Source: an uncultured Bacteroidota bacterium
GTDB taxonomy: Bacteria; Bacteroidota; Ignavibacteria; Kryptoniales; JAKASW01
Assembly (NCBI GenBank): GCA_963703365.1
Contig: OY969815.1
Location: 2,888,577-2,952,576, forward strand
DNA: 64,000 nt
Direction: 5' to 3'
Below are positions 4,735-37,406 of the stretch, piece by piece. The position numbers and the translations under genes were made by a program. The stretch's first letter is position 1. The number at the start of each line of letters is the position of its first letter. Under the pieces are notes generated by a model, which saw only the letters and a program-made list of their open reading frames with translations, made no database searches and was not told where the DNA came from.

Positions 4735-5883
4735 ATGCGTACCATGATCGTCATCTTGATTGTCACAGCCATATTAGCAATATATGGTTTAGCTAACTAT
4801 TACATCTGTGTTCGTGGCATTCATGCACTTCGACCAATCGGATCCCTGCGTGTAGTGTACGTGGTTGCATTTATCTTTCTAGCAATCTCGTACGTTGCCT
4901 CGGTTTTTTTAGAACGCGCAGATATAATTGTGCTGGGCAAACCGCTCAGCTGGATCGGCTCATTTTGGCTCGGGGCGTTTGTCTATTTTCTTCTTATTGT
5001 CGCTGCGATTGATCTGCTCCGGTTCATCAACCGTTTCCTTCCGTTCTTTCCTTCTTTTATTATTTCGAATTCTGCGCGCTCCGCATTCGTGGCAGCAATC
5101 GGCACGTTTTCACTCGTAGCAATTATAGTTGTTTATGGTTTTGTTAATGCACACATCATCCGCGTGCGAACGTTCGATATCGCGATTCCGAAGGAAGCCG
5201 GCAAACGCAAAACATTAAACATCGTCATGGCGTCCGATATTCATCTCAGCTCCATCATAGGCCGGAGCCGCATTAGATCCATTGTCGAAAAAATAAATTC
5301 ACTTTCACCCGATCTTGTGCTTCTGCCGGGTGACATCGTGGATGGCGATCTTAACCCTGTTATTCATCAAAATCTCGGCGAATCGCTGCGTCAAATCTGT
5401 GCTCCGCTTGGAGTCTATGCAATCACAGGCAACCACGAATATATCGGTGGAGTGGAGAAGGCTTGCAAGTATATAACGGACCATGGTGTCAAGATGCTGC
5501 GGGACACGAGCGTCTTTGTAGATGAAAGTTTCTACATCGTGGGCCGTGAGGATCTTTCTGCAAGGAAGCGCCGTTCACTCAAAGGGGTCATGGAAGATGT
5601 TAATACAAAATATCCGGTTATCCTCATGGATCACCAACCTTTTCACCTTGAGGAAGCAGAAGCAAATGGGATTGATCTCCAGCTTTCCGGACATACGCAT
5701 CATGGACAGCTATGGCCATTCAATTATATCACAGATATGGTCTATGAGCTGGCGTACGGCTATTTGGTGAAAGGGACGACGCGCATTTACGTTTCGTCGG
5801 GCGTCGGCACATGGGGTCCTCCGTTACGAATCGCCGCGGATCCGGAGATTGTGAACGTGCGGATAAGCATAGACTCAAATTAG
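4735..5883 (+). CDS. Membrane-anchored calcineurin-like metallophosphoesterase
   Basis: The N-terminus has hydrophobic TM segments. Phosphoesterase motifs follow: SDIHL, PGDIVDG, GNHE, GHTHHGQ. Confidence 0.85.
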   Translation: MRTMIVILIVTAILAIYGLANYYICVRGIHALRPIGSLRVVYVVAFIFLAISYVASVFLERADIIVLGKPLSWIGSFWLGAFVYFLLIVAAIDLLRFINRFLPFFPSFIISNSARSAFVAAIGTFSLVAIIVVYGFVNAHIIRVRTFDIAIPKEAGKRKTLNIVMASDIHLSSIIGRSRIRSIVEKINSLSPDLVLLPGDIVDGDLNPVIHQNLGESLRQICAPLGVYAITGNHEYIGGVEKACKYITDHGVKMLRDTSVFVDESFYIVGREDLSARKRRSLKGVMEDVNTKYPVILMDHQPFHLEEAEANGIDLQLSGHTHHGQLWPFNYITDMVYELAYGYLVKGTTRIYVSSGVGTWGPPLRIAADPEIVNVRISIDSN

Positions 5884-5934: not shown

Positions 5935-6633
5935 CTATTTCAACATCAACATCTTCTTCACCTTGCTCCAATTGTCGGCGCTTATTCTGTAGAAATAAAC
6001 ACCGGATGAGACAATGGTGCTATTTTTATTTATGCCGTTCCACGTTAGCTCAGTATAACCTGCAGGATAATCTGCATCCGCAACTTGTGCCACCTCTCGA
6101 CCCACGATATCGTAGATACTGAGTTTCACATGAGATGCTTTCGGAAGATCAAATGCTATCTTCGTTGATGGATTAAACGGATTAGGAAAGTTATTGTAAA
6201 GCTTATAATCTGTTGGTGCTGCAACTTCGACCGTTATATCTTTTGTCCATTTTTGACCATCTGATGTGCTTATCGTCGCCGTTAATGTCGTATCCTTTCC
6301 AATCGGTGCCTTCTTGTCTACGGAAAATGTGAACTCTGCGTCTCCTGTAGCGTTGGCTGCAATGCTTTTAATGAGCACAGTGTTTTGCGCCAGAGGCGCA
6401 TCCGCCTCTGGCGGAGATTTGAAGTCGAGCCATGTCGGAAGGTGATTGAATGTTACAGAGACATTCTTTGCTTCGAGGCTGGAAGTATTTTGAATATTCA
6501 GGGAAATCGTGTTGCCAGTCGACGCGAACGGTATTTCCCAAACTTGTCCGGTAACGTTCGTCGAAGCGACCTTCGCAGGTTGACCAAATGTGCTAACGGA
6601 AATTGCTAACAATAGGATGACAACGTATTTCAT
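5935..6633 (-). CDS. Secreted protein with T9SS (Por-type) C-terminal sorting domain
   Basis: It has a signal peptide (MKYVVILLLAISVSTFGQ). The C-terminus FPNPFNPSTKIAFDLP...SGVYFYRI is typical of Por_Secre_tail domains. The ORF contains copy 1 of the 26-nt palindrome, read as ADAPLAQ. Confidence 0.7.
   Translation of the reverse strand: MKYVVILLLAISVSTFGQPAKVASTNVTGQVWEIPFASTGNTISLNIQNTSSLEAKNVSVTFNHLPTWLDFKSPPEADAPLAQNTVLIKSIAANATGDAEFTFSVDKKAPIGKDTTLTATISTSDGQKWTKDITVEVAAPTDYKLYNNFPNPFNPSTKIAFDLPKASHVKLSIYDIVGREVAQVADADYPAGYTELTWNGINKNSTIVSSGVYFYRISADNWSKVKKMLMLK
6387..6412 (+). repeat. 26-nt palindromic element, copy 1 (inside ORF 5935-6633)
   Basis: GCGCCAGAGGCGCATCCGCCTCTGGC. The stem GCCAGAGGC/GCCTCTGGC is 9 bp with a 6-nt loop. 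Confidence 0.8.
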
Positions 6634-6689: not shown

Positions 6690-8276
6690 TTACGGTAATC
6701 TATCTATAAAATACTCAGCATTGTACTTCAAGAGTGCATAAGCCTCGCTTGTCATAATCGGATTCTGATTTCCTGCTTCTATCTTCTTGTCCACGATGCT
6801 CAACATCTCCACTTCGATCACAAATATCTCCAAATCCTTTCTTGCATCCACAGAGTCTTTCTTAGAAAGTTCAGCTTGTGCTTTATTTAATCTTCCGTCC
6901 AATACTTCAACTATTCCGTTATTCCAGTCCGTGTCAAAGCCCCAGGTAACATCAGGATTCCATTTGGCATACTGTTCAAAGTCGCCATTCTTGCACCAGA
7001 CTTTTTGACTCATTATGTTGTCACAATCCTGCTTGCAGGTCTTGTTGTCAGTGAGCCAGCCCTGCGCCACGCATTGGTGCTTATAGGAAATGAGGGTGTC
7101 GAGAAAAGCAAGTGCAATGAACGGAGACGGAGGATCACCCGCACCAATAGTCAAGCCATGTGCAGAATTAGTTAAAACATCGTTGTACCACGCTGGTCCT
7201 CCAGGTCCCATCGGAGGACCGTTATGACCACGCACATAATAATTGGTAATTACTGGTAACGCTCGTGTTCTATACGCAAATCTTGAATCAGTCTCGCCAG
7301 GTTTAATATAATCTGTAGAATTGTCTCCTATCACCCAATCGATAATTCCGTTACCTGGGTAGAATCCCCAACCCGGTCTATTACTCACCCCCTGCAGAGA
7401 ATCGGAAACTGGAGCGAGCACTATCTGATCGATATCTTGTTGACTGGTTGGTTTGCTGTGAATCACATATCTATAATCGAATCCGGACGCCGTTTCTATG
7501 ACCGAAGCATGTACGTCTACCTCAACCTTGTTCCTCGGTACTATTCCATTTACAGGGTATGGCGGCGTGCTCGGCCACTTGCCGTAAAGCTGCCCGTTGG
7601 AACTGTACACGATATACTTCTTCTCGATTATGTTCATGACCGTCTGGGTAATACCATTGTCAGTCTCATCGACAAATTGCACTGAATCTTGCTCTCCAAT
7701 TATTTCCATGATCCCATCGCCATTCACATCTTCGAGTTCAAATCCTCCCTGTTCCGCGGCGATTACAGATTGATTCTGATCGTCGAAAGCGTTCTCTAGA
7801 AACCCTGTATGCCCATCCCAGCCGAAAATCCATAGATACTCCTCTCCAAAACGATCTCCGACATCCCATGATGTTATGATATCCACTTTTCCGTCATGGT
7901 TTATGTCTTTGATAGCATAGAGATTCACGCCGCTCACATTGTCCTCATCAATCAAAGTATCTGAATGCCAAATAATTTGCCCCTCCTTGTAAATCCCTAT
8001 AGCCCCTCTTTCGCCATTTCCAGCAAAAAAGACAAAGCAATGCCTTAATGTTCCATACGGGTCTTCTATTTCACCAGCGGTGAGCGAACTATCAACACTT
8101 ATCACCAAGCCAGGGCCATAATCGGAGCCATAAACTTGTCTTATCTGAACGTTAATAGCCTGATAAACTTGGACGCTTACACCGGGTTCCTCTAACCATC
8201 CAGGCTGTGCGTGCACCACCCCTGTTAAATAGAAAAAGAAGGAAAAAATCAGGCAGAAAATATACTTGGTTTTCAT
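6690..8276 (-). CDS. Secreted protein with FG-GAP/VCBS-like Ca-binding repeats; function unknown
   Basis: It has a signal peptide ending VVHAQ. DxNxDGxxD-like loops are present (DINHDGKVDII, DVNGDGIMEII). Confidence 0.5.
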   Translation of the reverse strand: MKTKYIFCLIFSFFFYLTGVVHAQPGWLEEPGVSVQVYQAINVQIRQVYGSDYGPGLVISVDSSLTAGEIEDPYGTLRHCFVFFAGNGERGAIGIYKEGQIIWHSDTLIDEDNVSGVNLYAIKDINHDGKVDIITSWDVGDRFGEEYLWIFGWDGHTGFLENAFDDQNQSVIAAEQGGFELEDVNGDGIMEIIGEQDSVQFVDETDNGITQTVMNIIEKKYIVYSSNGQLYGKWPSTPPYPVNGIVPRNKVEVDVHASVIETASGFDYRYVIHSKPTSQQDIDQIVLAPVSDSLQGVSNRPGWGFYPGNGIIDWVIGDNSTDYIKPGETDSRFAYRTRALPVITNYYVRGHNGPPMGPGGPAWYNDVLTNSAHGLTIGAGDPPSPFIALAFLDTLISYKHQCVAQGWLTDNKTCKQDCDNIMSQKVWCKNGDFEQYAKWNPDVTWGFDTDWNNGIVEVLDGRLNKAQAELSKKDSVDARKDLEIFVIEVEMLSIVDKKIEAGNQNPIMTSEAYALLKYNAEYFIDRLP

Positions 8277-8291
8277 AAGTTCATCTCCTCA

Positions 8292-11288
8292 CTATGGCTG
8301 TGGTTGATATGTTTGGGAATTCTGAATAACGCCTGCAGCATAACCTGTTTTCGAGTTCCATCCATTGTACATCTGCAAAAATGCGTTATCATATCCGACG
8401 CTCCAGTTGGTTGTGCCATCAGGGTTTTCGTTCAGTATTTTCTGAAGCAAGAAAAGCTGATGCTTCATGGCAAATGGAAAGAAAACACTGTCCACATTAA
8501 GGTTTTCAGGCACGTGGTGATTGTCTTCTACATATCCACGATCAAGTGTTGTGGGATACATCATCTGCATCAACCCGTAGGAGCTGGCAATCCTTGTCTG
8601 AGCTACGATATTTTCAAGCCCCTTGGTTCCATTTTTTACCCCGCCATTCCACTGGTCGCGAAGATACGTGGTAATCGAATTAAGTGCGTTTGCGATATCA
8701 TCAGAGCTTGGTGATGGCTTATCCCCTTGGAAATGGTTCAAGATGGAATTATAAATTCTCTGAACTGTAACATACCCATACCTTGCAAAGTCCATTGTGC
8801 CATCCGGATTTCTCTTCCCGTATAATATAACCCCGCCCGGCTCAGATGGGCTTGTAAGCTGCGAATACTGGCTAACCATATACCAAACTTTCTCAGGGGA
8901 ACTGGGGTAAGGAATATATTGAGTATGCTGATGGTATGGAACAGGATCACCCGATCCCATATTTGTCGTCACATAGAATGGGCTGTTAGACCACGAGTCT
9001 GGTAATTGTTTGGGCGTTCGACCATTAAATTGCGTGGTAAAAGGTTCATACCTATACTGCGGCGGGTAGCCCAGCCCCGTGACTGGCTTGGATTCACTCG
9101 CGATTTGTCCTCTGATGTCCTGAGGCGGGATGCCATAAAGTCCTCCATTCACGATGCAGATAGAGTCAATGTCAGGGCGATTGTTAAAAACATCGATGGA
9201 ATAGCGCCATGGGTCGCTTGTGCCGAGGCTACTCGGTTTCTTCACCTCTATATCGATGCTCCCTGTTGCCGAGCCGGAAGACGCCGTCAGCAGAACTTTA
9301 TATGTGGTGCCTTGTTGCCAATATCTTCCAACAAGTCGAATCAACCCTGCAGGTAGAGGATTTCCATCCTCATCTTTGTATTCCCAATAAGCTCCCAACC
9401 TATCTCCTGACTCGGCTTGCACTGAAAACTGTGCATTCACCCTATCACTACTTGCTTGGCCCGGATCGGTGAGCTCTTTGATATCCAGCTTCGATGGATC
9501 GTTCGCGTCTGCCATCGCCTCATAATACTTTGTTTCACCGAGAAGAATTGTATGCCCCTCTATCACCACTTCACCGATGCCAAAATTACTCCACGAAAAG
9601 CTGTTCACATCAGAGACCGATTTAGTATTCCCCTTTCCCACGGACGAGACTACTGACATTGTGGGTGACTTAACGCCAGGGCTTTGAGCACGAGGAGTCG
9701 TTACCGTTGATTTCATCCCGCCTTGCAGAGAAGTCTTTGATATCGTATTGGTTGTCAAAGACTTCTGAAGCACCGTAGTCGCACTCTTCTCACCTGTTCC
9801 TTTTCCGCCCGGCTCAGTTGAACTTAACATTGGCGGCCGCGTTCCTACCCTTACCATTGCAACTACTGAATCAGCATCGACGCTATCTGCGGCTATAAAT
9901 CTGAATGGCTGTGAGACATTAGAAAAATACCCCCCAACGCGGCCATCCGATAACAGTATTGCTCCGTAATTCTCTCCACTCGATATCCCAATCTCAAACT
10001 TTTGGCCGGACGAAAAATCGGTCAAGCTGGCGTCTGCATTTCTCTGCTTTACAATAATTGCCACAGTGTCGCCGGGGGAAGCTACCGATGGAGTATCTGT
10101 CACAATCACAGGTGCCGGCAAGACCTGATCTACACCATAGAGGGGTTTGACGTTCTGCCCAGGCACTGCAATCTCTATCTGTATGTTTGTCGGTTGCTGC
10201 GGATCTTCACCATCCGCAATGTATTCGAATTCCCCGTAAGAAAGTGAGCCCCATTCAATGTCCGTCAGTACTTTTCCCTTCATGATTCCAGCTTGCAAAG
10301 TGCCATATTTCATTCCGGCACTGTCAAGCGTTATATCGATGAGGGTAGAATCCGGAATCGTTACGGGAAGATCATAAATATTCCCGGGTTCCAATCCAAT
10401 CCCTTCCTCATCCAGATGTTGGAGAGAACCCGAAGGAACTGATAGGAAATGATCAAAGTACGGCGGTTCAAGGAAGATCGAATTTTCGCTTGTCAAAGTC
10501 CCACTTTGTGCTTGAACTACTATCGAATCACCCAGTGAATCCACCGCTCCTAACCCATCGGCATCGAGCCAAAAGTCGCCTATGCTATCACCAACAGTCG
10601 TAACCGTAGCTCCCAACCCGACATCAACTCCCGTTTGTGAATCCAACCTGTGGAACGATACGTACTGACTACCGGAAACAATAGTCAACGTAACAGGGTC
10701 GGTGTGAGATGACCATGCTGTCGTGCTGCTATCGTCGTAACCCTGTAAGGCGACACTCGCACTCGTGGAGTATCCCTGCATAAGATAACCATAGTTATTA
10801 CTAAGGAGAAGATTAAACTTCGAGAAATAAGGAGTTGCAAAAGCCGCCTCCAAACCAACCATCGAGATCCATGTGCTATCCTCACCCGACTGACCCGAGC
10901 CGCACAAACTCCCCCACGGGTCAGTACCATCGTAATAATAGCTGAAACAGTTGCCCAGGTCAAACGAATGATACAGAGCCAAATACCCCTCATTAATACA
11001 CGGCGTAAAATAATACACACCAGCAACAGGAGACTGGATCTCGCCACTAACAGAGCCGACCGATGAAAAGACCTTGAAATAATTAGGCCCGCTGACTACA
11101 ACTATCGCATCATACGTCGAGTCCTGTAAAGAGAGAGTAAAGCTCAGCACGTGATTATTAGTTCCTCCCACCTCCACTTTTTTCGCCCGACCAGGCGCTA
11201 TCGTTGCGCTCTCCTTGATATGCACCTGCGCTAAAACTGCACTCGTCATTAGAAAGGTAATCGCAAAAACCGCTCCAGCCCTTTTCAT
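8292..11288 (-). CDS. 998-aa secreted protein with a Ser/Thr-rich linker and C-terminal lytic-transglycosylase-like motifs
   Basis: It has a signal peptide. The C-terminal third carries QIASES ... SYGLMQMMYP ... MYNGWN, matching the SLT motif order ES / GLMQ / YNxG. The ES-to-GLMQ spacing is unusually long. Confidence 0.55.
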   Translation of the reverse strand: MKRAGAVFAITFLMTSAVLAQVHIKESATIAPGRAKKVEVGGTNNHVLSFTLSLQDSTYDAIVVVSGPNYFKVFSSVGSVSGEIQSPVAGVYYFTPCINEGYLALYHSFDLGNCFSYYYDGTDPWGSLCGSGQSGEDSTWISMVGLEAAFATPYFSKFNLLLSNNYGYLMQGYSTSASVALQGYDDSSTTAWSSHTDPVTLTIVSGSQYVSFHRLDSQTGVDVGLGATVTTVGDSIGDFWLDADGLGAVDSLGDSIVVQAQSGTLTSENSIFLEPPYFDHFLSVPSGSLQHLDEEGIGLEPGNIYDLPVTIPDSTLIDITLDSAGMKYGTLQAGIMKGKVLTDIEWGSLSYGEFEYIADGEDPQQPTNIQIEIAVPGQNVKPLYGVDQVLPAPVIVTDTPSVASPGDTVAIIVKQRNADASLTDFSSGQKFEIGISSGENYGAILLSDGRVGGYFSNVSQPFRFIAADSVDADSVVAMVRVGTRPPMLSSTEPGGKGTGEKSATTVLQKSLTTNTISKTSLQGGMKSTVTTPRAQSPGVKSPTMSVVSSVGKGNTKSVSDVNSFSWSNFGIGEVVIEGHTILLGETKYYEAMADANDPSKLDIKELTDPGQASSDRVNAQFSVQAESGDRLGAYWEYKDEDGNPLPAGLIRLVGRYWQQGTTYKVLLTASSGSATGSIDIEVKKPSSLGTSDPWRYSIDVFNNRPDIDSICIVNGGLYGIPPQDIRGQIASESKPVTGLGYPPQYRYEPFTTQFNGRTPKQLPDSWSNSPFYVTTNMGSGDPVPYHQHTQYIPYPSSPEKVWYMVSQYSQLTSPSEPGGVILYGKRNPDGTMDFARYGYVTVQRIYNSILNHFQGDKPSPSSDDIANALNSITTYLRDQWNGGVKNGTKGLENIVAQTRIASSYGLMQMMYPTTLDRGYVEDNHHVPENLNVDSVFFPFAMKHQLFLLQKILNENPDGTTNWSVGYDNAFLQMYNGWNSKTGYAAGVIQNSQTYQPQP

Positions 11289-11353
11289 CGCACAACCCTC
11301 TTTTATGTTGATTTATCTTGTTAAACTAAGTCAACTGAACCATAGGCTCATCT

Positions 11354-11379
11354 GCGCTGAAGGCGCATCAGCCTCTGGC
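11354..11379 (+). repeat. 26-nt palindromic element, copy 2 (intergenic, degenerate left arm)
   Basis: GCGCTGAAGGCGCATCAGCCTCTGGC, upstream of the minus-strand 998-aa gene. Confidence 0.7.
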
Positions 11380-11626
11380 CGAAGCCTAAGGCTGAAAAAA
11401 CCACCTTAATATTGGTGCTTGGGAAGCTCTCTTTTTACAATAACATAAGAAGGAATGAATGTCAATAGGAACACACAAAAATGTTTGTCCACGTGAACTC
11501 CATCACACAGGGAACTTTTTGCTCGAAAGTCGGAAACACATTAAAAGATTCGTTGCATGTAGTCGGCATAAAATCTAAAAAAGGGAAAAGCGGAAGGACA
11601 ACCCTAAACAACCCAGCGCTCACAAT

Positions 11627-16818: not shown

Positions 16819-17631
16819 ATGTCACAGTACATACACGGAACCAGCTCCGAAGAGCAGCAACGCCTTACTCTCCTAAATACTGTTCTTCTCAACGAAGCAT
16901 GCCTGAAAGAGCTGTCGCTTCTCGGCGGAGAAAGAATTCTCGATGTAGGAAGCGGATTAGGTCAATTCTCACGGGCGATGGCGAGAAAGTCGAAGACGAC
17001 CGTCCTCGGCATAGAAAGAAGCGAAGAGCAAATCGCCGAGGCGTTGCGTCAGGCGAAGAAAGATCGGGAGGAAGAGCTGGTGGAGTTTCGCAAAGGCGAC
17101 GCAAGGCAGCTTCCGCTGCGGGAGGAGGAGTGGGGAAGATTTGACGTTGCATACGCGCGATTTGTTCTCGAACATGTTCCTGATCCATTGAACGTGGTGA
17201 AGCAGATGGTACGGGCAGTCAAGAAAGGAGGACGAGTCGTTCTCGCAGATGACGATCATGACGTCCTTCGCCTGTACCCTGAAATACCGGAGTTTGCGGA
17301 TTTGTGGAGCGCATATATGCAAACTTACTCTGCACTCGGCAACGATCCGGTTGTCGGAAGAAAGCTCGTTTCCCTTCTGCACGAATCCGACGCGGTGCCG
17401 GTCCGCAACACATGGATCTTTTTCGGAAGCTGCTCCGGTGGTAAGCATTTCGATATCTACGTCGATAACTTGATCGGAGTCGTTGAAGGAGCAAAAGAGC
17501 AGATAGTGCGGCAAGGGCTGGTCGAAGAGAAAAGATTTGATCGGGTAATAGCGTCCTTTCGGAGTTGGCATAAACAACCCGACGCAACATTATGGTACGC
17601 CGTCTCCTGGGCGGAAGGGATAAAACGCTGA
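16819..17631 (+). CDS. Class I SAM-dependent methyltransferase
   Basis: Motif I ILDVGSGLGQF, followed by the acidic loop and the FDVAYARFVLEHV region. Confidence 0.8.
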   Translation: MSQYIHGTSSEEQQRLTLLNTVLLNEACLKELSLLGGERILDVGSGLGQFSRAMARKSKTTVLGIERSEEQIAEALRQAKKDREEELVEFRKGDARQLPLREEEWGRFDVAYARFVLEHVPDPLNVVKQMVRAVKKGGRVVLADDDHDVLRLYPEIPEFADLWSAYMQTYSALGNDPVVGRKLVSLLHESDAVPVRNTWIFFGSCSGGKHFDIYVDNLIGVVEGAKEQIVRQGLVEEKRFDRVIASFRSWHKQPDATLWYAVSWAEGIKR

Positions 17632-17688
17632 GTGGGGGATTAGAACCGGAGCTTTTTCGTGAAACAGCGGCTGAGATTGCATCCCAAA

Positions 17689-17723
17689 AGCTATTAGTCA
17701 TTACCTATGAGCTATCAGCTAAA
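17689..17723. repeat. Tandem heptamer array, five units
   Basis: AGCTATT AGTCATT ACCTATG AGCTATC AGCTAAA. The complement reads TAGCTGA TAGCTCA TAGGTAA TGACTAA TAGCT. Confidence 0.7.
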
Positions 17724-17727
17724 TCCG

Positions 17728-17756
17728 TTGACATTATAACATGGGACGGCTATATT
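17728..17756 (+). promoter_or_regulatory. Sigma-70-type promoter candidate for the S41 peptidase gene
   Basis: TTGACA, a 17-nt spacer, then TATATT. It lies 65 nt upstream of the ATG at 17821 and directly follows a heptamer array. Confidence 0.55.
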
Positions 17757-17820
17757 TTTTCAAGATGATAAAGGGCTGTTTGGAATTATCGAAGACAGGA
17801 ATAATTGCAGATCGGAAAAC

Positions 17821-18873
17821 ATGAGGCAGAAAAAACTCCTCGTTAAACTTTTATTCCTTTCTCTTTTGATTTTGTCTTCTTGTAAAAAGGAAGACAATCC
17901 GGGTGGGATCACACCGCCAGACAATGAGAATACACCGCAAAACAATTTCAATGTCCTCTGGAATGATTTCGATCAAAATTATCCGGTATTTGAATTGAAT
18001 GATATTAATTGGGACTCTGTCTATTACGTTTATTATCCGAAGATAACTTTAAATACCACCGATGCCGATCTTTTTAATATTTTAAAGTCATGCATCTTGA
18101 CATTGAAGGATGCTCACTCGGACATAATTTCAAATCAATTCGGAAGCTGTGATTATTACGATTTATTTGTTCAACAAAAACCGACTAATTTTATAAGCTG
18201 GAATCTGATCAGCTCAAAATATGTCCAGGTACTAAAATCTAATAACCAGCATTTGGCTTACGGGAAAGTGCTCAACGAGGACATAGGGTATTTCTTTATC
18301 GGGAGCTTTGACGACAGCGCAAGTAATTATTATCTGATAGATTCTCTTCTTACAGTATTTCAAAATTCAAAGGGGATAATAATAGATGTAAGACAAAATG
18401 GCGGCGGCAATGAGACGTACGCCCAGATTGTGGCAAGCAGGTTGACAAATACATCTGTGATTTATCGATATTACAGAGAAAGAAATGGCCCGAAGCATTC
18501 CGACCTAACCGGTTACTTTCCGGTAGTTTTGGTTCCTGGCGGGCCGATCAAGTACACAAAGACGGTCGTATTGCTCACCAGCCGGCGAACATTCAGTGCT
18601 GCCGAGGATTTTACTTTAATGTTGAAGAGCTTGCCGAACGTAATTCATATCGGCGATACGACATTCGGAGGTGTCGCAACAAATCCGATCACTAAAACCC
18701 TGCCGAATGGTTGGACATACCGTATGGCAAGAGCAATTGAATGTGACAACAATGAAGTTCCGATAAAGAACGGAATTGTCCCGCAGATTCCGGTTCAGAT
18801 TAGTAAAGCCGATTCAATTCAGGGCGTCGATAGGATTCTTGAAGAAGCCATAAATAAAATAAATGGAAACTGA
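17821..18873 (+). CDS. S41-family (tail-specific/tricorn-core-like) peptidase lipoprotein
   Basis: Lipobox LILSSC; IIDVRQNGGGN; TSRRTFSAAEDF, which is the S41 catalytic Ser context. Confidence 0.75.
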   Translation: MRQKKLLVKLLFLSLLILSSCKKEDNPGGITPPDNENTPQNNFNVLWNDFDQNYPVFELNDINWDSVYYVYYPKITLNTTDADLFNILKSCILTLKDAHSDIISNQFGSCDYYDLFVQQKPTNFISWNLISSKYVQVLKSNNQHLAYGKVLNEDIGYFFIGSFDDSASNYYLIDSLLTVFQNSKGIIIDVRQNGGGNETYAQIVASRLTNTSVIYRYYRERNGPKHSDLTGYFPVVLVPGGPIKYTKTVVLLTSRRTFSAAEDFTLMLKSLPNVIHIGDTTFGGVATNPITKTLPNGWTYRMARAIECDNNEVPIKNGIVPQIPVQISKADSIQGVDRILEEAINKINGN

Positions 18874-18958
18874 ATTTCTCATTGCGACATTCTCAAACCG
18901 TGAGGGCAGGGAAAAGTTTTCATACAACCGATGGAATTCAGAAAAGATAAGCCACGAA

Positions 18959-18986
18959 AGCTATCAGCCATGAGCTAATAGCTAAC
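18959..18986. repeat. Tandem heptamer array, four units
   Basis: AGCTATC AGCCATG AGCTAAT AGCTAAC. Confidence 0.7.
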
Positions 18987-18991
18987 TCTTC

Positions 18992-19020
18992 TTGATATTA
19001 CAAGATGGAGCGGCTATATT
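18992..19020 (+). promoter_or_regulatory. Sigma-70-type promoter candidate for the ImmA-XRE/DUF4411 operon (paralogue of 17728-17756)
   Basis: TTGATA, a 17-nt spacer, then TATATT. The spacer is 13/17 identical to the copy at 17734-17750. Confidence 0.55.
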
Positions 19021-19201
19021 CATGTGAGATGACTAACCGCCCACGGCTTAGGCAGGACGGGATCCTCCGGAAGGGCGATCGGAGATCATCGAAAGGAAAG
19101 GTACGATTGCAAGATCAGGAGATGTTGCGGCAGGAAGTAGTTTACACAATTACCATAGACCAACAAAACAAACTTAATTCTTATTATCTTTAAGACACAA
19201 A

Positions 19202-20380
19202 ATGGCGGACAAAGCAAACATAACACCAAACGTGCTTAAATGGGCGAGAGAGTCAGCAAGAATAAGCGAAGAAATTGCGGCCTCTAAGGTTTCTGTATCT
19301 GTTGATAAACTTAAAGAATGGGAAAGGGGTACAAGCCAGCCAACAATAAGGCAGGCTCAAACACTTGCAAAGGCTTATAAGCGTCCATTCGCATTATTCT
19401 TCCTTCCTGAAATCCCAAGAGACTTTCAACCACTTCAAGACTTCAGAAAGAAGGATTCAAAGGCATTAGGGACGGGTTCTATTTTTATCATTCGTGAAAT
19501 CCAACAGAAACAAGCTTGGATAAGTGAAGTAGACGAAGAAAACGGCGAAGAAAAAATACCTTTTGTTGGCCAATTCTCAATTAGGGATAATCCATTAGCA
19601 GTAGCGAACGATATATTGAATGCACTCGGTGTTGTCCCTTCACATTACACGACTGATAATCCAATAAGAGAATGGATTGATAAGGCAGAATCAAAAGGAG
19701 TCTTTATTTCACGAACAAGTTTTATTCATCCAAAATTAAAACTGGATAGCGGAGAGCTACAGGGTTTCGCTATTGCAGATCTCTATGCTCCGTTTGTATT
19801 TGTTAACTCGGAAGATTGGGATGCTCCACAACTATTTACTCTCGTTCATGAGCTTGCACATATCTGGATAGCTGAAACCGGTATTTCAAATGAAATTGAA
19901 CCTGAAATAAAAAACAGGGACAAGTTTCATCCTGTAGAATTGTTCTGTAATGAAGTAGCGGCTAATGCTCTTATACCCTCCGACATTATTAATGATCTGG
20001 AACGTGACATTTTCAAATCAGCTAAGGAAGTTTTTAAGGTATCTAAAAGTCTAGGAGTAAGTTCTTTTGCTTTTTTGGTAAGAGCCCTAAATCTCAACTT
20101 GATCTCCCATGATATTTACAAAAAACTGAAGCATGAAGCAGATATGGAGTACAGGGCATTTTTGAAAAGAGCAGAAGAAAAAGAAGCAAAGGGTAAAGAC
20201 AAAGAAAAGAAAGGTGGACCTAGTTACTATTTATTGCAACTAAACAAGAATAGCCGGCTATTTACTCGGACTGTTTTGGACGCCTTTCATGGCGGTTTCA
20301 TTGAACCGACACAAGCAAGTAGCCTGCTAAACGTTAAAGTAAATAAATTTTCGCTGTTGGAAGCGCAACTGCATAAATGA
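19202..20380 (+). CDS. XRE-type HTH fused to ImmA/IrrE (M78, DUF955) zinc metallopeptidase
   Basis: The N-terminal HTH is LKWARESARISEEIAASKVSVSVDKLKEWERGTSQPTIRQ. The HEXXH motif is VHELAHIW. A Lys/Glu-rich C-terminal helix follows. Confidence 0.8.
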   Translation: MADKANITPNVLKWARESARISEEIAASKVSVSVDKLKEWERGTSQPTIRQAQTLAKAYKRPFALFFLPEIPRDFQPLQDFRKKDSKALGTGSIFIIREIQQKQAWISEVDEENGEEKIPFVGQFSIRDNPLAVANDILNALGVVPSHYTTDNPIREWIDKAESKGVFISRTSFIHPKLKLDSGELQGFAIADLYAPFVFVNSEDWDAPQLFTLVHELAHIWIAETGISNEIEPEIKNRDKFHPVELFCNEVAANALIPSDIINDLERDIFKSAKEVFKVSKSLGVSSFAFLVRALNLNLISHDIYKKLKHEADMEYRAFLKRAEEKEAKGKDKEKKGGPSYYLLQLNKNSRLFTRTVLDAFHGGFIEPTQASSLLNVKVNKFSLLEAQLHK

Positions 20381-20883
20381 GTCCAACAGCAGACATCTAT
20401 TGCTTAGATGCCAATGTACTAATTCAAGCCTGGCAGAAATACTATTCACCTAAATTTTGTCCCGACTATTGGCAAGTTTTGGATGAGCTTGGAAACCGAG
20501 GAACCATATTCGTGCCTGAGATGGTACATGAAGAAATTGTCAGAACGGATGACGACTTGTCGAAATGGTTAATGAAAAGTAAGATTCCCGTTCGCAAAAT
20601 TGATGAGGCGGTTACCAAATGCTTACAAAGTATTTATTCTAAAAATTCAACACATGAACTCCTTGTTGATAACACAAAGTATAGATCGTTAGCGGATCCC
20701 TGGGTGATTGCCCATGCGATCAATGAGAGAGCAATTGTCGTGACAAAGGAAGAAAAAATAACAGCTTTAAATTCGAGCAAAATAAAAATACCGAATGTGT
20801 GTGACAACATGGGTGTACCCTGGATTAACGACTTTCAATTAATTGAGAAACTTGGCATTCGATTTAATTGTAAGCTGACATGA
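20377..20883 (+). CDS. DUF4411 (PIN-like nuclease fold) protein, putative toxin/effector partner of the ImmA-XRE protein
   Basis: YCLDANVLIQAW...YYSPKFCPDYW...LADPWVIAHA...VVTKEE...KIPNVCDNMGV matches the DUF4411 pattern as I remember it. It overlaps the upstream gene by 4 bp (ATGA). Confidence 0.7.
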   Translation: MSPTADIYCLDANVLIQAWQKYYSPKFCPDYWQVLDELGNRGTIFVPEMVHEEIVRTDDDLSKWLMKSKIPVRKIDEAVTKCLQSIYSKNSTHELLVDNTKYRSLADPWVIAHAINERAIVVTKEEKITALNSSKIKIPNVCDNMGVPWINDFQLIEKLGIRFNCKLT

Positions 20884-21036
20884 TTCATCTCGTTACTATG
20901 GTCTCCACGGTAACTAAAAGATTGGCGCTCCGCGCCAGCACAAATTAATGTGACACTATGATACATCTCCGACATGGTACACGACAGGTCAGGGATTGAC
21001 ACATGAACCGGAGACTCTTTAGTTTACTTCTTTTAG

Positions 21037-22023: not shown

Positions 22024-24096
22024 TCATATCAAAGTTCCGACATTATACACGACAAACGCGACAAGCCATGCTATCGCAAAACTATACCCGAGGAATAGAA
22101 AGCCGAACATTTTTCCGCCTTCCCTTGCCATCACGGCAACCGTCGCGAGACATGAAGTGTACAAGAGGAGAAAGATCATGAACGACATAGCGGATGCCGC
22201 TGTGAAGCTCGACCTTATCATGGCACGCAAGCTCTCATTGCCGCTGTCGGTCTGAAGCGTTTGAATCGTCGGCGTGAGTAGCGATGTGAAGCTCTCTTTC
22301 AATGCGGTTGCAAGAGATTTTGCCTGTCCGCCGAGAGCAGAGTAGAATTGGAACTTCGTTGTACTCGTCGGAATGTTTTCGGAGTAAATCGTGCCCATTG
22401 AACTTAAGACAATTTCCCGCGCGAGAAATGCTGGAATGAGTGACGTTGAAATTCTCCAATCGTTTATGCCGATCGGCTTGAATATCGGAGTGATTGCTTT
22501 GCCGATGTATGCTGCAGCGCTATCCGACGGATTCTTTAACCCCGGCGGCGTATTCAACAAAACCCAAATAGCTACTGAAGCTGCGAAAATTAATGTCCCG
22601 GCTCTGTAAAGAAAACTTTTCACCTGCACCCAGGTGATTCTCATTACAGTCTTCAACGCGGGAAGCCGATACGGCGGGAGCTCCATGACAAAGTGCGAAA
22701 GGTTTCCTTTGAACGCCGTCTTACGCAGGAAGAACGCCGTCAGAAGCCCGATCAGAATTCCGAGCACGTAAAGAGAAAATATCACGATGGCCGGGTGATT
22801 GAAAAATAGAATCGCGAAGAAAGAGAATATGACGAGTCTTGCCGGACAGCTCATAAATGGAATCATTGCCATGACGAGAAGTTTATCGCGCTTGTTTTCC
22901 AAAGTCCTGGTTGCGATGATGGCCGGCACATTACAGCCGAAGCCTAAGAGAAGCGGAATCATTCCCTTGCCGTGGAGTCCAAGCTTGTGCATGAACCTGT
23001 CCATCATGAAAGCGATCCGTGGCATGTACCCCGACATTTCGAGGAGCGCGAGGAGAAAATATATCACGCCGATCAGTGGAACGAAAGTAATTACAAAACC
23101 GACGCCGCCTATAATTGCTCCGGAAAAGAAACTGAGAATCCATTCACTCGCGCCGGCCTTCGCAAGCATCGACGAGACTAACGGCGAGAGAAAATTGTTT
23201 ATCAAATTCGTCGTCCAGTTCATAAGCGGGTTGGAAAAATCGAACGAGATTTTGAAAATCAAAAACATTACAAGCAGGAAAATTGCGAAACCGAGGAACG
23301 GGTGAAGAACAATCCTGTCTATCCTGTCGGTCATGTCTCTTGCTGCCGATTTTTTTCTCTTGAAGACCTCGCTGTAAAATCCATTTGCGAACGCGTACCG
23401 CTCTTCTTTGACGATTGTGGAAATATTTTTCTTGAAGAATTTTTCTAGTTTAACTTTTTCTTTGTTCTCTCCGTCGCCGTTTGAAAGAAGATTAATGAGA
23501 GTGTGCTTGTCGATTTTTCCATTTTTATTGCTGTGTTCGACCCTCGCGAGTGATTCTTCGAGTGCGTCGTTGTACTTCAACGGGTTTGGGGCTGACTTTT
23601 CCTCGACTGTCTTGATGATCGCATCGAGAAGTTCCTGCACGCCGTCGCCGTTTCTGCCGTTCGTTTTTATTACGGGAATGTTTAAAAGCTCCCTTGAGTG
23701 TCCGCTGTCGATTTCTATCCCGCGGCGCTGTGCCTCGTCGATCATGTTAAACGCGAGAACCATCGGTCTCTCGAATTCAAGAAGCTCAGTCGTCAGCAGA
23801 AGATCGCGCTCGGCGTTAGTAGTTTCTATGACATCGACGATGACGTCCGGATTTTCTTCGACTAAGAAATTATATGCCACCCACTCATCTTCGGAAAGAG
23901 GCTCGAGCGTGTAAATGCCGGGAAGATCGATGAAGTGGATGTCGTACCCTTTATAACTCATGGACCCTTCGCGCTTCTCAACCGTAACGCCGGACCAGTT
24001 GCCGACTTTCAAATCCGTTTTTGCGGCGCAATTGAGAAGCGACGTCTTGCCAACGTTTGGGTTCCCTGCAAAGGCTACTTTGATTACCTTCTTCAT
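22024..24096 (-). CDS. feoB: Ferrous iron transporter FeoB
   Basis: N-terminal G domain with GNPNVGKTSLLN and DLPG, followed by a polytopic membrane domain. Confidence 0.95.
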   Translation of the reverse strand: MKKVIKVAFAGNPNVGKTSLLNCAAKTDLKVGNWSGVTVEKREGSMSYKGYDIHFIDLPGIYTLEPLSEDEWVAYNFLVEENPDVIVDVIETTNAERDLLLTTELLEFERPMVLAFNMIDEAQRRGIEIDSGHSRELLNIPVIKTNGRNGDGVQELLDAIIKTVEEKSAPNPLKYNDALEESLARVEHSNKNGKIDKHTLINLLSNGDGENKEKVKLEKFFKKNISTIVKEERYAFANGFYSEVFKRKKSAARDMTDRIDRIVLHPFLGFAIFLLVMFLIFKISFDFSNPLMNWTTNLINNFLSPLVSSMLAKAGASEWILSFFSGAIIGGVGFVITFVPLIGVIYFLLALLEMSGYMPRIAFMMDRFMHKLGLHGKGMIPLLLGFGCNVPAIIATRTLENKRDKLLVMAMIPFMSCPARLVIFSFFAILFFNHPAIVIFSLYVLGILIGLLTAFFLRKTAFKGNLSHFVMELPPYRLPALKTVMRITWVQVKSFLYRAGTLIFAASVAIWVLLNTPPGLKNPSDSAAAYIGKAITPIFKPIGINDWRISTSLIPAFLAREIVLSSMGTIYSENIPTSTTKFQFYSALGGQAKSLATALKESFTSLLTPTIQTLQTDSGNESLRAMIRSSFTAASAMSFMIFLLLYTSCLATVAVMAREGGKMFGFLFLGYSFAIAWLVAFVVYNVGTLI

Positions 24097-24428
24097 TTTA
24101 CTTCGATATTCTTTGCGACGTCGCCAGTGATTACTATCCGCGTGCCGCCGGCCTTGATTAAAATTCCTCTTCCTAATTTTTTTAGGATGGTGATGTGCTT
24201 CCCTTTCCGAAGTCCCATGGCTTCGATTTTTTTTGCTGTCTCATTGTGGTCGAAGAAATCTACAATCTGTGCCGTGTCGCCGACGTGAAGTTCCTTTAGA
24301 TTATTTTTCTTGTCGGAGATTCCATGTGCGGAACTCGCCGACTTTCTTGACTCATTAATTTCAATATTTTTCTCCCCGGAGTTCCCGTGTGCAGGAGTCG
24401 TACCGCGGAGCTTGTTTCCAAAGTTCAT
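24093..24428 (-). CDS. feoA: FeoA-family protein
   Basis: FeoA SH3-like core LHVGDTAQIV...LGRGILIKAGGTRIVI. It overlaps feoB by 4 bp. Confidence 0.8.
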   Translation of the reverse strand: MNFGNKLRGTTPAHGNSGEKNIEINESRKSASSAHGISDKKNNLKELHVGDTAQIVDFFDHNETAKKIEAMGLRKGKHITILKKLGRGILIKAGGTRIVITGDVAKNIEVK

Positions 24429-24445
24429 TGTAATTTATTTCTTTT

Positions 24446-24471
24446 GCGCCCAAGGCGCATCAGCCTCTGGC
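24446..24471 (+). repeat. 26-nt palindromic element, copy 3 (fur stop / fur-feoA spacer)
   Basis: GCGCCCAAGGCGCATCAGCCTCTGGC. The fur stop codon (complement of 24460-24462) lies in the loop. Confidence 0.8.
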
Positions 24472-24975
24472 TGAATCACGTGCATCGTTCTTTTGACATT
24501 CCGAACACAATCCGAATATCTGGTGCGAATGACTTAGTAATCGAAACTTGAATCTCTTCGCAATGCTTTGCTGAGCGGCTTCAATATTTTTGTCGACGAA
24601 CTCGGTGATCTTTCCGCAATTGATGCACACAAGATGATCATGATGTGTGCGGCCGAATGCCTTTTCGTAACGTGAGCCATGATCTTTAAGTCTGGTTTTG
24701 AATACAAGCTTGCACTTTTCGAGAACGTCGAGCGTGTTATAAACTGTGGCCCTTGACACTTTGCTGCCGTCTTCTTTCAGCTTGAGGAACAATTCGTCTG
24801 CATCGAAATGACCGGTTGCCGTATTCACGGCATTAAGGACTTCAAAGCGTTCGGAAGTTACTCGGTAGCCTTCTTTTCGCAGAAATTCTTCTAACTTTTG
24901 TTTTGCTGTTTCCATCCCGCGGTCATATTTTAAATTAAGTCTAAGTAAGTTATCTGTATCAGGCATAGAGTTCAA
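24460..24975 (-). CDS. fur: Fur-family metalloregulator (start uncertain: TTG 24975, ATG 24966 or ATG 24915)
   Basis: Winged-helix segment RVTSERFEVL...SRATVYNTL; metal sites HHDHLVCINCG and CSEC. The stop codon lies in the loop of 26-nt palindrome copy 3. Confidence 0.85.
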   Translation of the reverse strand: MNSMPDTDNLLRLNLKYDRGMETAKQKLEEFLRKEGYRVTSERFEVLNAVNTATGHFDADELFLKLKEDGSKVSRATVYNTLDVLEKCKLVFKTRLKDHGSRYEKAFGRTHHDHLVCINCGKITEFVDKNIEAAQQSIAKRFKFRLLSHSHQIFGLCSECQKNDARDSARG

Positions 24976-27285: not shown

Positions 27286-27443
27286 CTATTCCTTACGCGT
27301 CCTTTCAAGTTGTTATTTGTTAAGACTTAATCTAAGTAAAGATAGAGTTGCCGGGTGCTATTGTCAAGGGAAAGGTGGTCCTCTTTGGTCACCGTCGTGG
27401 CGAGTCGCCTCGTTCGTTGCAACGATATTTATTACACAACGTA

Positions 27444-27480
27444 GAGTAACCAAATTGACAGATGAGCGATTTGGTTACTC
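27444..27480. other. Perfect 12-bp inverted repeat (hairpin or operator) between the TonB receptor gene and bfr
   Basis: GAGTAACCAAAT - 13 nt - ATTTGGTTACTC. Confidence 0.5.
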
Positions 27481-27567
27481 TGATAAATCGCGATTCAAGA
27501 CGGCGGGGTGTACCACCCTGGAACAAGATGACAGATCACCCCGTCGAACCCAGATAAAAACTATTCT

Positions 27568-28286: not shown

Positions 28287-28323
28287 GCCGCCCTTTCAGA
28301 AGCCCTGAAAGACATCTATGCTA

Positions 28324-30528
<2,205 letters not shown>

Positions 30529-36578: not shown

Positions 36579-37406
36579 TCAGCCAACAACCGGGTTCATA
36601 TTGCGGCTACGATTCATATAAATGTCATCAAGAATTTCGCCGGCATCATTTGAAAAATTCGCGTCAAGCATGTCTTCAAAGCCGTTTTTAACAGCTTCTT
36701 TTATTTCAGTGAACTCTATCTTTTGCGCCAGAGGCGCATCAGCCTTTGGCTGACTTTTCAGAATTTCTGTCAACGTCGTGGTGTGCGAATCAAGATCACT
36801 CAACGTTTTCTGTTTGAGTTTGTCATCGACGTTAAGATATTTGACGATTTGCTTGTGAAAGTTTCCGATCAGGATCGAGCCATGCTGAAGTAAGACATCG
36901 CCGAATCTGTGTTGTGCACTGCCGACAAGTTTTTTGCCATGCCATTCGACTTCGTAAACAGCGGAAGTCGAGAAACACGGTATCGTAGAAGGATCATGGA
37001 ACAGCTTGCGGAAATCGGTCGAGCTTTGGGATAATTCCAAATCCGCAACAAGAGTTCGAAGGCCTTCGGCGAGAGCGTTACTGATTAAATTATAGCTATC
37101 GCGAATCGGCAATCCACCTGTGCTCATTACGACGGAATAAGTCAACTCATCCGCATGGAGAACAGCCTTTCCGCCGGTAGGCCGCTTCACGACTTCGATG
37201 CCATCTTGTCCGGCAAGCTCAACGATTATATCTGAGTCGTTTTGATTCTTGCCGAGCGAAATGCAGAAGGGTTTCCAGCGGTAAAACCTGAGAATGGGTG
37301 TGTGATCAATTTTGAATTCATCCACAAGCCGGAGGTCGAAGTCCATGTTAAACCTCCCGTCGTGCTCTCCCGTGTCGATGCAATTCCACAGCACAACATC
37401 GCTCAC
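36579..37406 (-). CDS. Biotin/lipoate A/B protein ligase family protein (LplA/LipM-like)
   Basis: RRPTGGKAVLHADELTYSVV and GKKLVGSAQHRFGDVLLQHGSILI. The ORF contains 26-nt palindrome copy 4, read as ADAPLAQ. Confidence 0.7.
   Translation of the reverse strand: MSDVVLWNCIDTGEHDGRFNMDFDLRLVDEFKIDHTPILRFYRWKPFCISLGKNQNDSDIIVELAGQDGIEVVKRPTGGKAVLHADELTYSVVMSTGGLPIRDSYNLISNALAEGLRTLVADLELSQSSTDFRKLFHDPSTIPCFSTSAVYEVEWHGKKLVGSAQHRFGDVLLQHGSILIGNFHKQIVKYLNVDDKLKQKTLSDLDSHTTTLTEILKSQPKADAPLAQKIEFTEIKEAVKNGFEDMLDANFSNDAGEILDDIYMNRSRNMNPVVG
36725..36750 (+). repeat. 26-nt palindromic element, copy 4 (inside lipoate-ligase-family ORF)
   Basis: GCGCCAGAGGCGCATCAGCCTTTGGC, preceded by TTTT as in copies 1 and 3. 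Confidence 0.8.

Follow-up and report, generated by a model that had tools for sequence, protein, structure and literature searches.

Results

Four copies of EL in the window

The DNA analysed here is a 64,000-nt stretch (the window) of contig OY969815.1 from an uncultured Bacteroidota bacterium of the Ignavibacteria, and it carries four copies of a small palindromic element that we name EL. The preliminary description of this DNA had reported a 26-nt palindrome at four places on the plus strand. A pattern search of the window confirmed this: the 26-mer matches at 6387, 11354, 24446 and 36725, always on the plus strand, with 1, 3, 2 and 1 mismatches, respectively. The number of matches expected by chance is zero, as none of 100 dinucleotide-preserving shuffles contained any match. 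A fifth copy was found neither by a pattern search of the window that allowed up to 7 mismatches nor by a covariance model run with its filters off. The model's match at 41174-41201 (12.4 bits) was weak and seems to be a chance similarity.

Copy 1 (6386..6415, plus strand; TGCGCCAGAGGCGCA|TCCGCCTCTGGCGGA) lies in frame within the open reading frame (ORF) 5935..6633 on the minus strand. This gene encodes a 232-residue secreted protein of the type IX secretion system (T9SS), sorted by its C-terminus, with Por_Secre_tail and FlgD_ig domains, and the element adds the residues PPEADAPLAQ. Copy 4 (36724..36753, plus strand; TGCGCCAGAGGCGCA|TCAGCCTTTGGCTGA) also lies in frame, within ORF 36579..37406 on the minus strand, which encodes a protein of the LplA/LipB (lipoate-protein ligase) family; it adds SQPKADAPLA. 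Copy 3 (24445..24474, plus strand; TGCGCCCAAGGCGCA|TCAGCCTCTGGCTGA) lies between a Fur-family gene (24460..24975, minus strand) and feoA (24093..24428, minus strand), and a frame comparison with a related strain shows that the Fur frame runs into it. Copy 2 (11353..11382, plus strand; TGCGCTGAAGGCGCA|TCAGCCTCTGGCCGA) is intergenic, 65 nt upstream of ORF 8292..11288 on the minus strand. The earlier view that copies lie both inside genes and between them holds for the two in ORFs (6387 and 36725) and for the intergenic one (11354), while the one at 24446 is found 1 nt past the Fur stop codon in a near-identical strain.

Copy 2 is nested in an older copy. The left part of the older element (11336..11352, plus strand; T GAACC ATA GGCTC AT C|) and its right part (11383..11395, plus strand; |AGCC TAA GGCTG A) were both read from the sequence, and when joined they form a 30-nt double hairpin with one stem mismatch. 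The arrangement ATAGGCTCATC[element]AGCCTAAGGCTGAAAAAA, which consists of the inner copy at 11353 and the right and central older parts, recurs 130 kb away in the same genome (L154, ~5171-5228; labels of this form denote retrieved element-bearing or related loci outside the window). The 80-nt flanks of the four window copies are mutually unrelated in alignments, and the likeness ends at the element. Thus, apart from the nested copy at 11354, the copies are not pieces of larger duplicated segments; had they been, the proposal of the preliminary description would have fallen by its own criterion.

EL is a pair of abutting hairpins

EL is exactly 30 nt long and consists of two abutting 15-nt hairpins (TGCGCC-AGA-GGCGCA | TCCGCC-TCT-GGCGGA). 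Each half has a 6-bp stem (T-xy-GCC / GGC-y'x'-A), which includes a terminal T:A pair, and a loop of 3 nt. The loop of hairpin 1 (ARA) is the reverse complement of that of hairpin 2 (TYT), and EL is therefore a head-to-head (inverted) dimer of a 15-nt monomer. The halves, which together make up the entire element, are inverted copies of each other that are identical at 13 of 15 positions. The consensus is T-GCGCC-NNA-GGCGC-AT-CCGCC-TNT-GGCGG-A, a 14+2+14 layout with a central AT. The 26-nt unit first proposed was thus too short; the true length is fixed by empty tRNA counterparts (see below). The contexts '(C)TTTT' and 'GGCNGA' that had been noted around three copies are in part the first T and the last NGA of EL itself and in part the TTY target preference.

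Each half is constant at GCC-NNN-GGC, and the outer two pairs co-vary (GC, CC, CA, GA, CG). For instance, positions 17 and 27 are C:G in 82, A:T in 24 and something else in 9 of 115 copies; this covariation is free of ascertainment, as position 27 lay outside the retrieval pattern, in which position 17 could be any base. Among 52 distinct sequences, 9 of which came from a scan that demanded pairing, pairing in the two 5-bp hairpins reaches 98.3%, and in 27 cells both partners of a pair have changed; this was equalled by none of 500 shuffles. In contrast, a single long hairpin (9-bp or 14-bp) is 81.2% paired compared with 80.7% in shuffles, and we rejected it as the conserved fold. Thus, the two mini-hairpins, which had been offered as an alternative, describe the structure and the favoured 9-bp stem does not. 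DNA folding z-scores for three window copies were -4.4 to -6.6. As single-stranded DNA (ssDNA), two window copies fold into two hairpins, the best preserved one folds into one long hairpin and the most degenerate one barely folds.

Lone 15-nt monomers also exist. Eight occur within 8 kb of a Brocadiales metagenome-assembled genome (MAG) (L127; TCCGCC-TNA-GGCGGA), and at L040 1522-1536 a pseudo-tRNA-Asn has a lone monomer hairpin in place of part of its anticodon arm. In three loci the loop of the first hairpin is split by 6 to ~50 nt of other inserted DNA (L052 254-338, L056 7326-7398, L079 4477-4516), and independent nested insertions were found at CCGCCTCT|GGCGG in the second hairpin of another copy (L038, L053, L074). 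The hairpin loops of EL therefore appear to be insertion hot spots themselves. A hammerhead or other small ribozyme was considered and rejected, as the CUGAUGA and GAAA cores were not seen by inspection and an Rfam match was absent.

Filled and empty sites in genes and strains

Comparisons of filled and empty sites defined the insert. In L107 an intact tRNA-Ser reads GTGGGTTC|GAATCCCAC, and the adjoining fragment reads GTGGGTTC[TGCGCCAGAGGCGCATCAGCCTCTGGCGGA]GAATCCCAC. A clean 30-nt insert was likewise found for tRNA-Thr and tRNA-Gly in L067 and for tRNA-Asn in L040. At all five sites with an empty DNA counterpart (three tRNAs, LplA and a helicase) the insert is exactly 30 nt, and a target-site duplication was found at none of these sites.

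The residues SQPKADAPLA are present in ORF 36579..37406 and in a 97%-identical relative, and they are missing exactly from 13 aligned homologues that are 45-80% identical; in one homologue with 76% identity, a degenerate form of them occupies this position. The corresponding DNA of L134 is empty (AAGAGACAA|ATAGAG), whereas the window reads AAAAG[30 nt]AAAGATAGAG; in L135 the site holds a decayed copy with its hairpins destroyed. (In L134 5460-7586, the syntenic OmpH and LpxD genes are each broken into two or three short ORFs, probably by long-read frameshift errors.) The T9SS protein has 232 residues compared with 222 in most homologues, and the difference is PPEADAPLAQ; homologues with 73-87% identity lack exactly these 10 residues. 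A T9SS paralogue in the same genome carries 10 residues, LGAHQPLADS, at another position. These match EL in the opposite orientation, which is known from the peptide alone.

A closely related strain, L136, provided a third comparison. Its Fur is 98% identical to that of the window, and DNA identity is ~85% around a helicase (UvrD/PD-(D/E)XK) site. In L136 the helicase contains SAGDGSASGR, derived from a decayed 10-codon copy, and the window orthologue has no insert. Insertion polymorphism was thus observed at both the LplA site (window and L134) and the helicase site (L136 and window), which runs against immobility. At the Fur site both strains are filled, and the L136 copy is located 1 nt beyond the native stop of Fur. 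The window (24476-24480) differs from L136 (5490-5500) by a 1-nt deletion (CACAGTGAT to CACGTGAT) through which the native Fur stop is lost, so that the window Fur ORF enters EL copy 3 and ends at the TGA of the element. Either a true mutation or an error of long-read assembly could account for this deletion. Copies decay after insertion and are not maintained in place (L135; L136, L155, L154).

The two strains also differ in gene content. A ~6-kb segment of the window (25027-30900; GC 52% compared with ~45%), which encodes a TonB-dependent receptor, a ferritin-like protein and a catalase-peroxidase, sits between DUF58 and Fur; it is missing in the near-identical L136, where DUF58 is directly beside Fur. 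Additionally, a small variable island lies between an outer membrane protein beta-barrel gene and a methyltransferase gene (window 16819-21813, L136 8161-12031). It contains Peptidase_S41, Peptidase_M78 (IrrE-like) and DUF4411 in the window and a caspase-like Peptidase_C14 in L136.

Insertion target and tRNA contexts

EL is inserted at TTY|RAA, a near-palindromic target (t-T-Y|R-A-w-t) whose best instance is the tRNA T-loop, TTC|GAAT (GGTTC|GAATCC). At 79 sites outside T-loops we found T(-2) in 84%, Y(-1) in 86%, R(+1) in 81% and A(+2) in 73%; across tabulations, the TTY directly 5' of the insert is T(-2) in 84-87% and Y(-1) in 86-90%. Many copies are flanked by GGTTCT...GAGAATCC, which is a tRNA T-arm broken in the loop, and T-loops account for ~25 of 105 distinct sites. 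All 19 T-loop copies that were scored share the orientation of the tRNA sense strand. Hairpin-loop sites other than T-loops were also seen (L025/L122, L060, L082, L083, L117), but the enrichment is weak and not significant, and we do not accept hairpin-loop targeting outside T-loops as an established preference.

Only 1 of the 111 copies gives a complete tRNA once the 30 nt are taken out, and here an intact paralogue lies at a distance of 276 nt. Instead, T-loop copies occur in partial tRNA copies that adjoin an intact tRNA of the same identity, in two arrangements. In the first, the intact tRNA lies 10-718 nt upstream (the nearest copy within 335 nt), and the fragment consists of 5-14 nt of the 5' side and mostly the full 17-18-nt 3' end. 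In the second, the intact tRNA lies 41-276 nt downstream, and the three clearest fragments consist of 22-55 nt of the 5' part and just 6-7 nt beyond the loop. Near the 54 tRNAs examined, ~18 of 20 partial tRNA duplicates carry EL at the T-loop; automatic flagging gave 14 of these, and visual judgement added the others, which are variant or interrupted copies. ARAGORN detected only one of the EL-bearing tRNA-like sequences. We interpret this pattern as survivorship, in which a hit in an essential tRNA gene can be observed only if a duplicate makes good the loss. Alternatively, the insertion process itself may create or transduce flanking DNA at tRNA loci.

The possibility that EL is a tRNA intron was rejected, as a bulge-helix-bulge motif is missing and the copies lie in gene fragments, with the 1 of 111 in a complete tRNA noted above.

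Three further loci concern tRNA genes. In L032 (4305-4755, a Patescibacteria MAG) two copies flank an intact tRNA-Asn, and the T-arm flanks are swapped between two tRNA identities; such a product would be expected of recombination between copies or of small-circle integration. In L028 (3000-3200, a Nanoarchaeota MAG) three tRNA 3'-half-like sequences stand in tandem, the last with EL in its T-loop, and they may be split-tRNA halves or repeated fragments. In L122 (2147-4219, Ignavibacteriota MAG CAVSHI010000002.1) at least 16 tandem 118-nt units, each with GCGCCGCAGGCGCC, lie beside a tRNA-Pro and ~300 nt from an EL copy.

EL in reading frames

The common C:G variant is stop-free in all six frames. 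As it is also 30 nt long, a gene that it enters gains 10 residues, and the insertion can persist. In the A:T variant each strand contains one TGA, and it is this codon that ends the window Fur ORF. Outside T-loops, 23 of 80 copies lie in ORFs of at least 200 aa, and ~29-36% of copies lie in long ORFs. The prevailing frames among these 23 are PPEADAPLA, CARGASASG and APEAHPPLA, and the Arg/Trp-rich frames account for 3 of 23. Such a skew would be expected from selection on the translated inserts. A conserved peptide motif was rejected as an explanation, as every one of the six frames is represented among the copies and some of them are in non-coding DNA.

All four window copies had been described as transcribed in the same sense. 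This does not hold across loci: relative to ORFs of at least 150 aa, 17 copies are in sense and 23 in antisense orientation, and the insert of the T9SS paralogue in the same genome appears, by its peptide, to be in sense.

Distribution

A degenerate-pattern scan of one genome per species recovered at least 116 loci in MAGs that are labelled as belonging to at least seven phyla, and more than 100 other genomes carry EL. The labels include Ignavibacteriota, Bacteroidota, Kryptoniota, many Patescibacteria lineages, Omnitrophota/PVC (Planctomycetes-Verrucomicrobia-Chlamydiae), Chloroflexota/Dehalococcoidia, uncultured Gammaproteobacteria, Brocadiales and Nanoarchaeota. A few matches fell in isolates or in GC-rich genomes, but these are without the hairpins and seem to be due to chance. 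In viral sequences, a first scan with a loose pattern gave matches that were mostly due to chance in GC-rich DNA and were set aside. A generalised pattern found variants with CAGCC or CCGCC stems in about ten IMG/VR contigs, some with two copies. Together these contigs encode portal, terminase, capsid and tail proteins and thus are genuine tailed phages. A match to EL was found neither in the PLSDB plasmids nor in the INPHARED phages.

The source contig itself has three further copies in 41 kb outside the window (two 20-kb pieces), which brings the overall density to about one per 14 kb. The five copies in the source contig with a clear orientation all lie on the same strand, but one is not independent, and this uniformity is only suggestive of a strand bias. 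The preliminary description had stated that its proposal of a genome-wide REP/MITE-like family (repetitive extragenic palindromic, REP; miniature inverted-repeat transposable element, MITE) would fall if the genome held no further copies; the three copies speak for it. That proposal stands in so far as EL is dispersed, lies in and between genes and extends to other copies in the same genome and to other genomes, but the REP tag is absent. It had also recognised no described family. Likewise, no description of EL was found by sequence, encoded peptide or keyword within the literature library searched, and at the gathering threshold the only Rfam match was tRNA, in 12 EL-bearing loci.

Search for a mobilising enzyme

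The preliminary description had advised a search for a partner of the RAYT (REP-associated tyrosine transposase) type. Our searches gave no support for one: neither a RAYT nor any other transposase was found in the window and none recurs near the copies. Clustering of 1,540 locus ORFs by all-against-all blastp, with Pfam searches on representatives of the ten largest clusters, revealed no recurrent neighbour gene. The 149 ORFs nearest to EL fall into 197 Pfam families, the largest with three members, and none is a RAYT. Nothing recurrent was found near EL among 114 phage ORFs searched against Pfam, and separated half-sites that bound a transposase were not found in ~0.9 Mb of loci. As no linked transposase occurs in the window or near the copies, EL is non-autonomous.

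The three-member Pfam family is an IS110 transposase gene that carries EL in frame (SQPKADAPQAQK) and thus is a host, not a partner. All three genes come from one Ignavibacteriota MAG (L018 6-1163, L030 6097-7224, L131 2141-3223), which indicates that this insertion sequence (IS) multiplied after being hit.

Several other genes and repeats were observed near EL. Four loci (L022, L044, L085 and L129) have genes for 23S rRNA-intervening-sequence (four-helix-bundle) proteins no more than a few kb from EL, too few for an association, and GIY-YIG genes near two loci are too rare to matter. L130, a Patescibacteria MAG, has 97-nt inverted repeats (2849-2945 and 7857-7953, 93% complementary), each with EL, around 4.9 kb of genes; these repeats (…GACTCCGCTCGGAATGACA) look like another widespread repeat family. 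The window also contains a type II restriction-modification pair (50152-51902; an N6/N4 DNA methylase and an EcoO109I-family endonuclease) with no evident link to EL.

Discussion

A model for the movement of EL

We propose that EL is a miniature, non-autonomous, REP/MITE-like mobile element that is probably moved in trans as ssDNA, and we give this reading a probability of roughly 0.55. The filled and empty sites demonstrate mobility and the compensatory changes demonstrate the structure; the enzyme and the single-stranded route are what we infer. In our model, EL would be moved in trans at the DNA level. Its single-stranded form would most likely be handled by a hairpin-recognising enzyme of the HUH type, either IS200/IS605-RAYT-like or IS91-like. 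This enzyme would cut 3' of a TTY motif that is exposed in ssDNA or in hairpin-loop DNA. Insertions in tRNA genes would survive only beside a restoring duplicate, which would account for the partial tRNA copies. EL-bearing phages may aid the crossing of phylum boundaries. HUH transposition is the best fit because there is no target duplication, a motif lies on the 5' side, the hairpins form within one strand, a loop preference is possible, the tRNA insertions are strand-specific and flanking DNA is co-duplicated.

Several points weigh against this proposal. First, the enzyme is one that we postulate; neither an HUH nor another transposase was found near any copy examined. Second, the ends needed by IS608 or IS91 are far longer than EL. 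Third, EL is without the GTAG/CGTC tag of REPs, and one core sequence occurs in many phyla, unlike the lineage-specific REP-RAYT pairs. Fourth, the target preference is symmetric (TTY|RAA), which the 5'-tetranucleotide rule of IS200/IS605 or IS91 does not predict. Fifth, hairpin loops outside T-loops are enriched by a factor of only 2-3, which falls short of significance (6.0% of sites have stems of at least 6 bp, compared with 1.5-2.3% of controls, in small numbers). Last, in our model selection alone accounts for the close association between T-loop copies and short local duplications, which may instead reflect the insertion mechanism.

These points leave room for a second, more tentative reading, which we think is possible but favour clearly less. 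EL and its 15-nt monomer would be the smallest mobile DNA yet seen and would represent an undescribed, cross-domain class that homes to the third position of a hairpin loop, chiefly the universal tRNA T-loop. Its mechanism would lie outside the known transposase families and would itself generate the partial tRNA duplications. Candidates for such a mechanism may be a widespread single-strand nuclease/ligase specific for hairpin loops, or a structure-driven template switch.

Alternative explanations

The main rival to movement by an HUH-type enzyme is enzyme-free templated insertion. A nascent strand that stalls at a hairpin or T-loop would switch to an EL copy through 2-3 nt of TTY/RA microhomology, copy the 30 nt and return; the target preference would then be mere microhomology with the donor flanks, which perpetuates itself. 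Such a process would require no linked enzyme gene, and none was found. It would also accommodate the flank preference that is symmetric on both sides, the T-loop and hairpin contexts with the short local tandem duplications that are typical of slippage, and the copies in phages and many phyla without a common gene. However, the boundaries are sharp, with exactly 30 nt at five of five sites read in DNA and 10 residues in the two T9SS paralogues, whereas template switching should often bring extra donor flank along. Moreover, the right flank of the LplA site is not RA. Template switching also does not explain why one sequence, rather than any hairpin, has spread across phyla, or why the T-loop copies share one orientation in 19 of 19 cases. 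We consider it clearly less likely than movement by an HUH-type enzyme, but more likely than the alternatives that follow.

We regard it as unlikely that EL is a double-stranded MITE, in which the 15-nt halves would be terminal inverted repeats and a DDE-type or other dimeric transposase would cut the palindromic TTY|RAA bluntly. The dyad symmetry, the scoring of both strands by the covariance model and the symmetric target logo are in keeping with this, as is the L130 pair within inverted repeats around 4.9 kb. However, there is no target-site duplication at any compared site. A parent element or a DDE transposase was not found, and the only IS seen (IS110 in L018, L030 and L131) is a host of EL. 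Additionally, covariation keeps the intra-strand hairpins, which a duplex binding site would not need.

The strongly conserved fold with its compensatory changes, and the position of some copies directly past genes (for instance 1 nt after the Fur stop), could be taken to mean that EL is a functional RNA or regulatory element under selection, whether as a hairpin for stabilisation or termination, as an RNA motif to which a protein binds or as a small intron that is cut out of tRNA or mRNA. Archaeal tRNA introns can occupy T-loops. Against this, EL lies in both orientations relative to genes, is evidently translated inside ORFs and is present in phages, and its copies decay in place, as described above for L135, L136, L155 and L154. 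There is no T-run for termination and no match to an Rfam family of its own. The T-loop copies lie in dead gene fragments beside an intact tRNA, and by inspection their junctions are without a bulge-helix-bulge motif. This explanation is thus very doubtful.

We attach just as little weight to the idea that EL is a site-specific recombination site of the att or dif kind, with inverted half-sites around the central AT, on which a serine or tyrosine recombinase would act and of which the copies would be scars or secondary sites. The 14+2+14 layout fits this, the flank swap around tRNA-Asn in L032 suggests recombination between copies, and T-loops are classic crossover sites of integrases. However, conservative recombination cannot make a new 30-nt insert at the empty LplA, T9SS and helicase sites, and de novo copies at sites without prior similarity are already indicated. 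No recombinase recurs nearby, and by inspection the junctions share no common crossover dinucleotide.

Last, chance similarity, an assembly or adapter artefact, or gene-fragment duplication is effectively refuted: all true matches are in MAGs and none in isolate plasmids or phages, but zero chance matches are expected, the flanks are unrelated, the variation includes compensatory changes, ORFs are read through, and the matches come from many separate studies whose contig names suggest various assemblers and both short- and long-read data.

Significance

If confirmed, EL is a very small and sharply defined mobile sequence that is common to distant uncultured lineages and phages. It would be a clean system in which to ask how hairpin repeats such as REPs, double-hairpin elements (DHEs) and GC clusters move, a question that is unanswered for most of them. 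EL creates in-frame insertions of 10 residues in ordinary proteins, it can supply or shift stop codons, and at tRNA loci it marks gene fragments that it perhaps also generates. Software that predicts genes or tRNAs will mis-handle it. Owing to its constant core, it could mark DNA exchange in groundwater, sediment and soil communities. What adds interest over the preliminary description is the exact 30-nt anatomy, the targeting of T-loops, the in-frame persistence and the spread across domains and phages.

Comparison with known systems

REPs are 20-40-bp palindromes that often form head-to-head dimers and fold as one long or two short hairpins, with stems down to 5 bp; they carry an unpaired GTAG/CGTC tag, some lie inside genes or supply stops, some families insert in small palindromes, and the transposase of the CGTC family is not known (PMC3733652). 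EL resembles REPs and REPINs in its 30-nt length and in its two inverted 15-nt hairpin monomers. It differs in that it has no GTAG/CGTC tag and no spacer between the monomers. Moreover, with 23 of its 80 non-T-loop copies in ORFs of at least 200 aa it is not chiefly extragenic, its core is common to at least seven phyla, and no RAYT flanked by EL copies was seen in the window or among the 149 nearest ORFs. The halves of EL are inverted repeats like the ends of a MITE, but EL makes no target-site duplication. As EL departs from REPs in tag, location and lineage and from MITEs in target duplication, we file it as a miniature hairpin repeat that is a member of neither family.

Rickettsia palindromic elements (RPEs) are mobile palindromic repeats of ~100-150 bp that lie in frame in protein genes and are translated; they are restricted to Rickettsia. 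RPEs end in CGTC (PMC3733652). Thus, both RPEs and EL are translated, in-frame palindromic inserts, but EL is 30 nt long and crosses phyla, and the CGTC tag is a feature of RPEs.

Members of the IS91 family make no target duplication, insert at GTTC/CTTG, have subterminal palindromes, undergo one-ended transposition and transduce flanking DNA (bioRxiv 10.1101/2025.01.24.634351). Like IS91/ISCR and IS200/IS605, EL is without a target duplication and inserts 3' of a short motif ((G/C)TTY compared with GTTC/CTTG for IS91). Further points of likeness are that hairpins near the ends are essential in those elements and that neighbouring DNA can be mobilised along with them. However, those elements need ends of tens of nt and a transposase gene, whereas EL is two 15-nt hairpins and its preference also extends 3' of the cut.

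Archaeal non-canonical tRNA introns are short inserts for which transposition has been proposed, and the T-loop is among their possible positions; bacteria have no splicing endonuclease. By inspection, the junctions of EL (TTC|TG and GA|GAA) lie opposite one another in a 2x2 internal loop instead of forming staggered 3-nt bulges. EL also differs in that its hosts are nearly all bacteria and that it lies in fragments beside an intact tRNA.

By analogy, the nearest described counterparts of EL would seem to be the mitochondrial DHEs and related hairpin repeats, with REPs and REPINs also close. The DHEs of chytrid fungi and fission yeasts, hairpin-forming repeats and the GC clusters of yeast are tiny, GC-rich mitochondrial sequences with two adjacent hairpins; DHEs are dispersed between genes and in rRNA and protein genes without flanking duplications, are kept in transcripts, move by an unknown mechanism and occur as identical copies across species, which suggests horizontal spread (PMC10085805; PMC2800124). 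EL shares with them the adjacent GC-rich hairpins, the dispersal and the lack of flanking duplications. A T-loop target such as that of EL is not described for DHEs in these two papers (PMC10085805; PMC2800124). DHEs occur only in the mitochondrial genomes of eukaryotes, whereas EL occurs in bacteria, archaea and phages.

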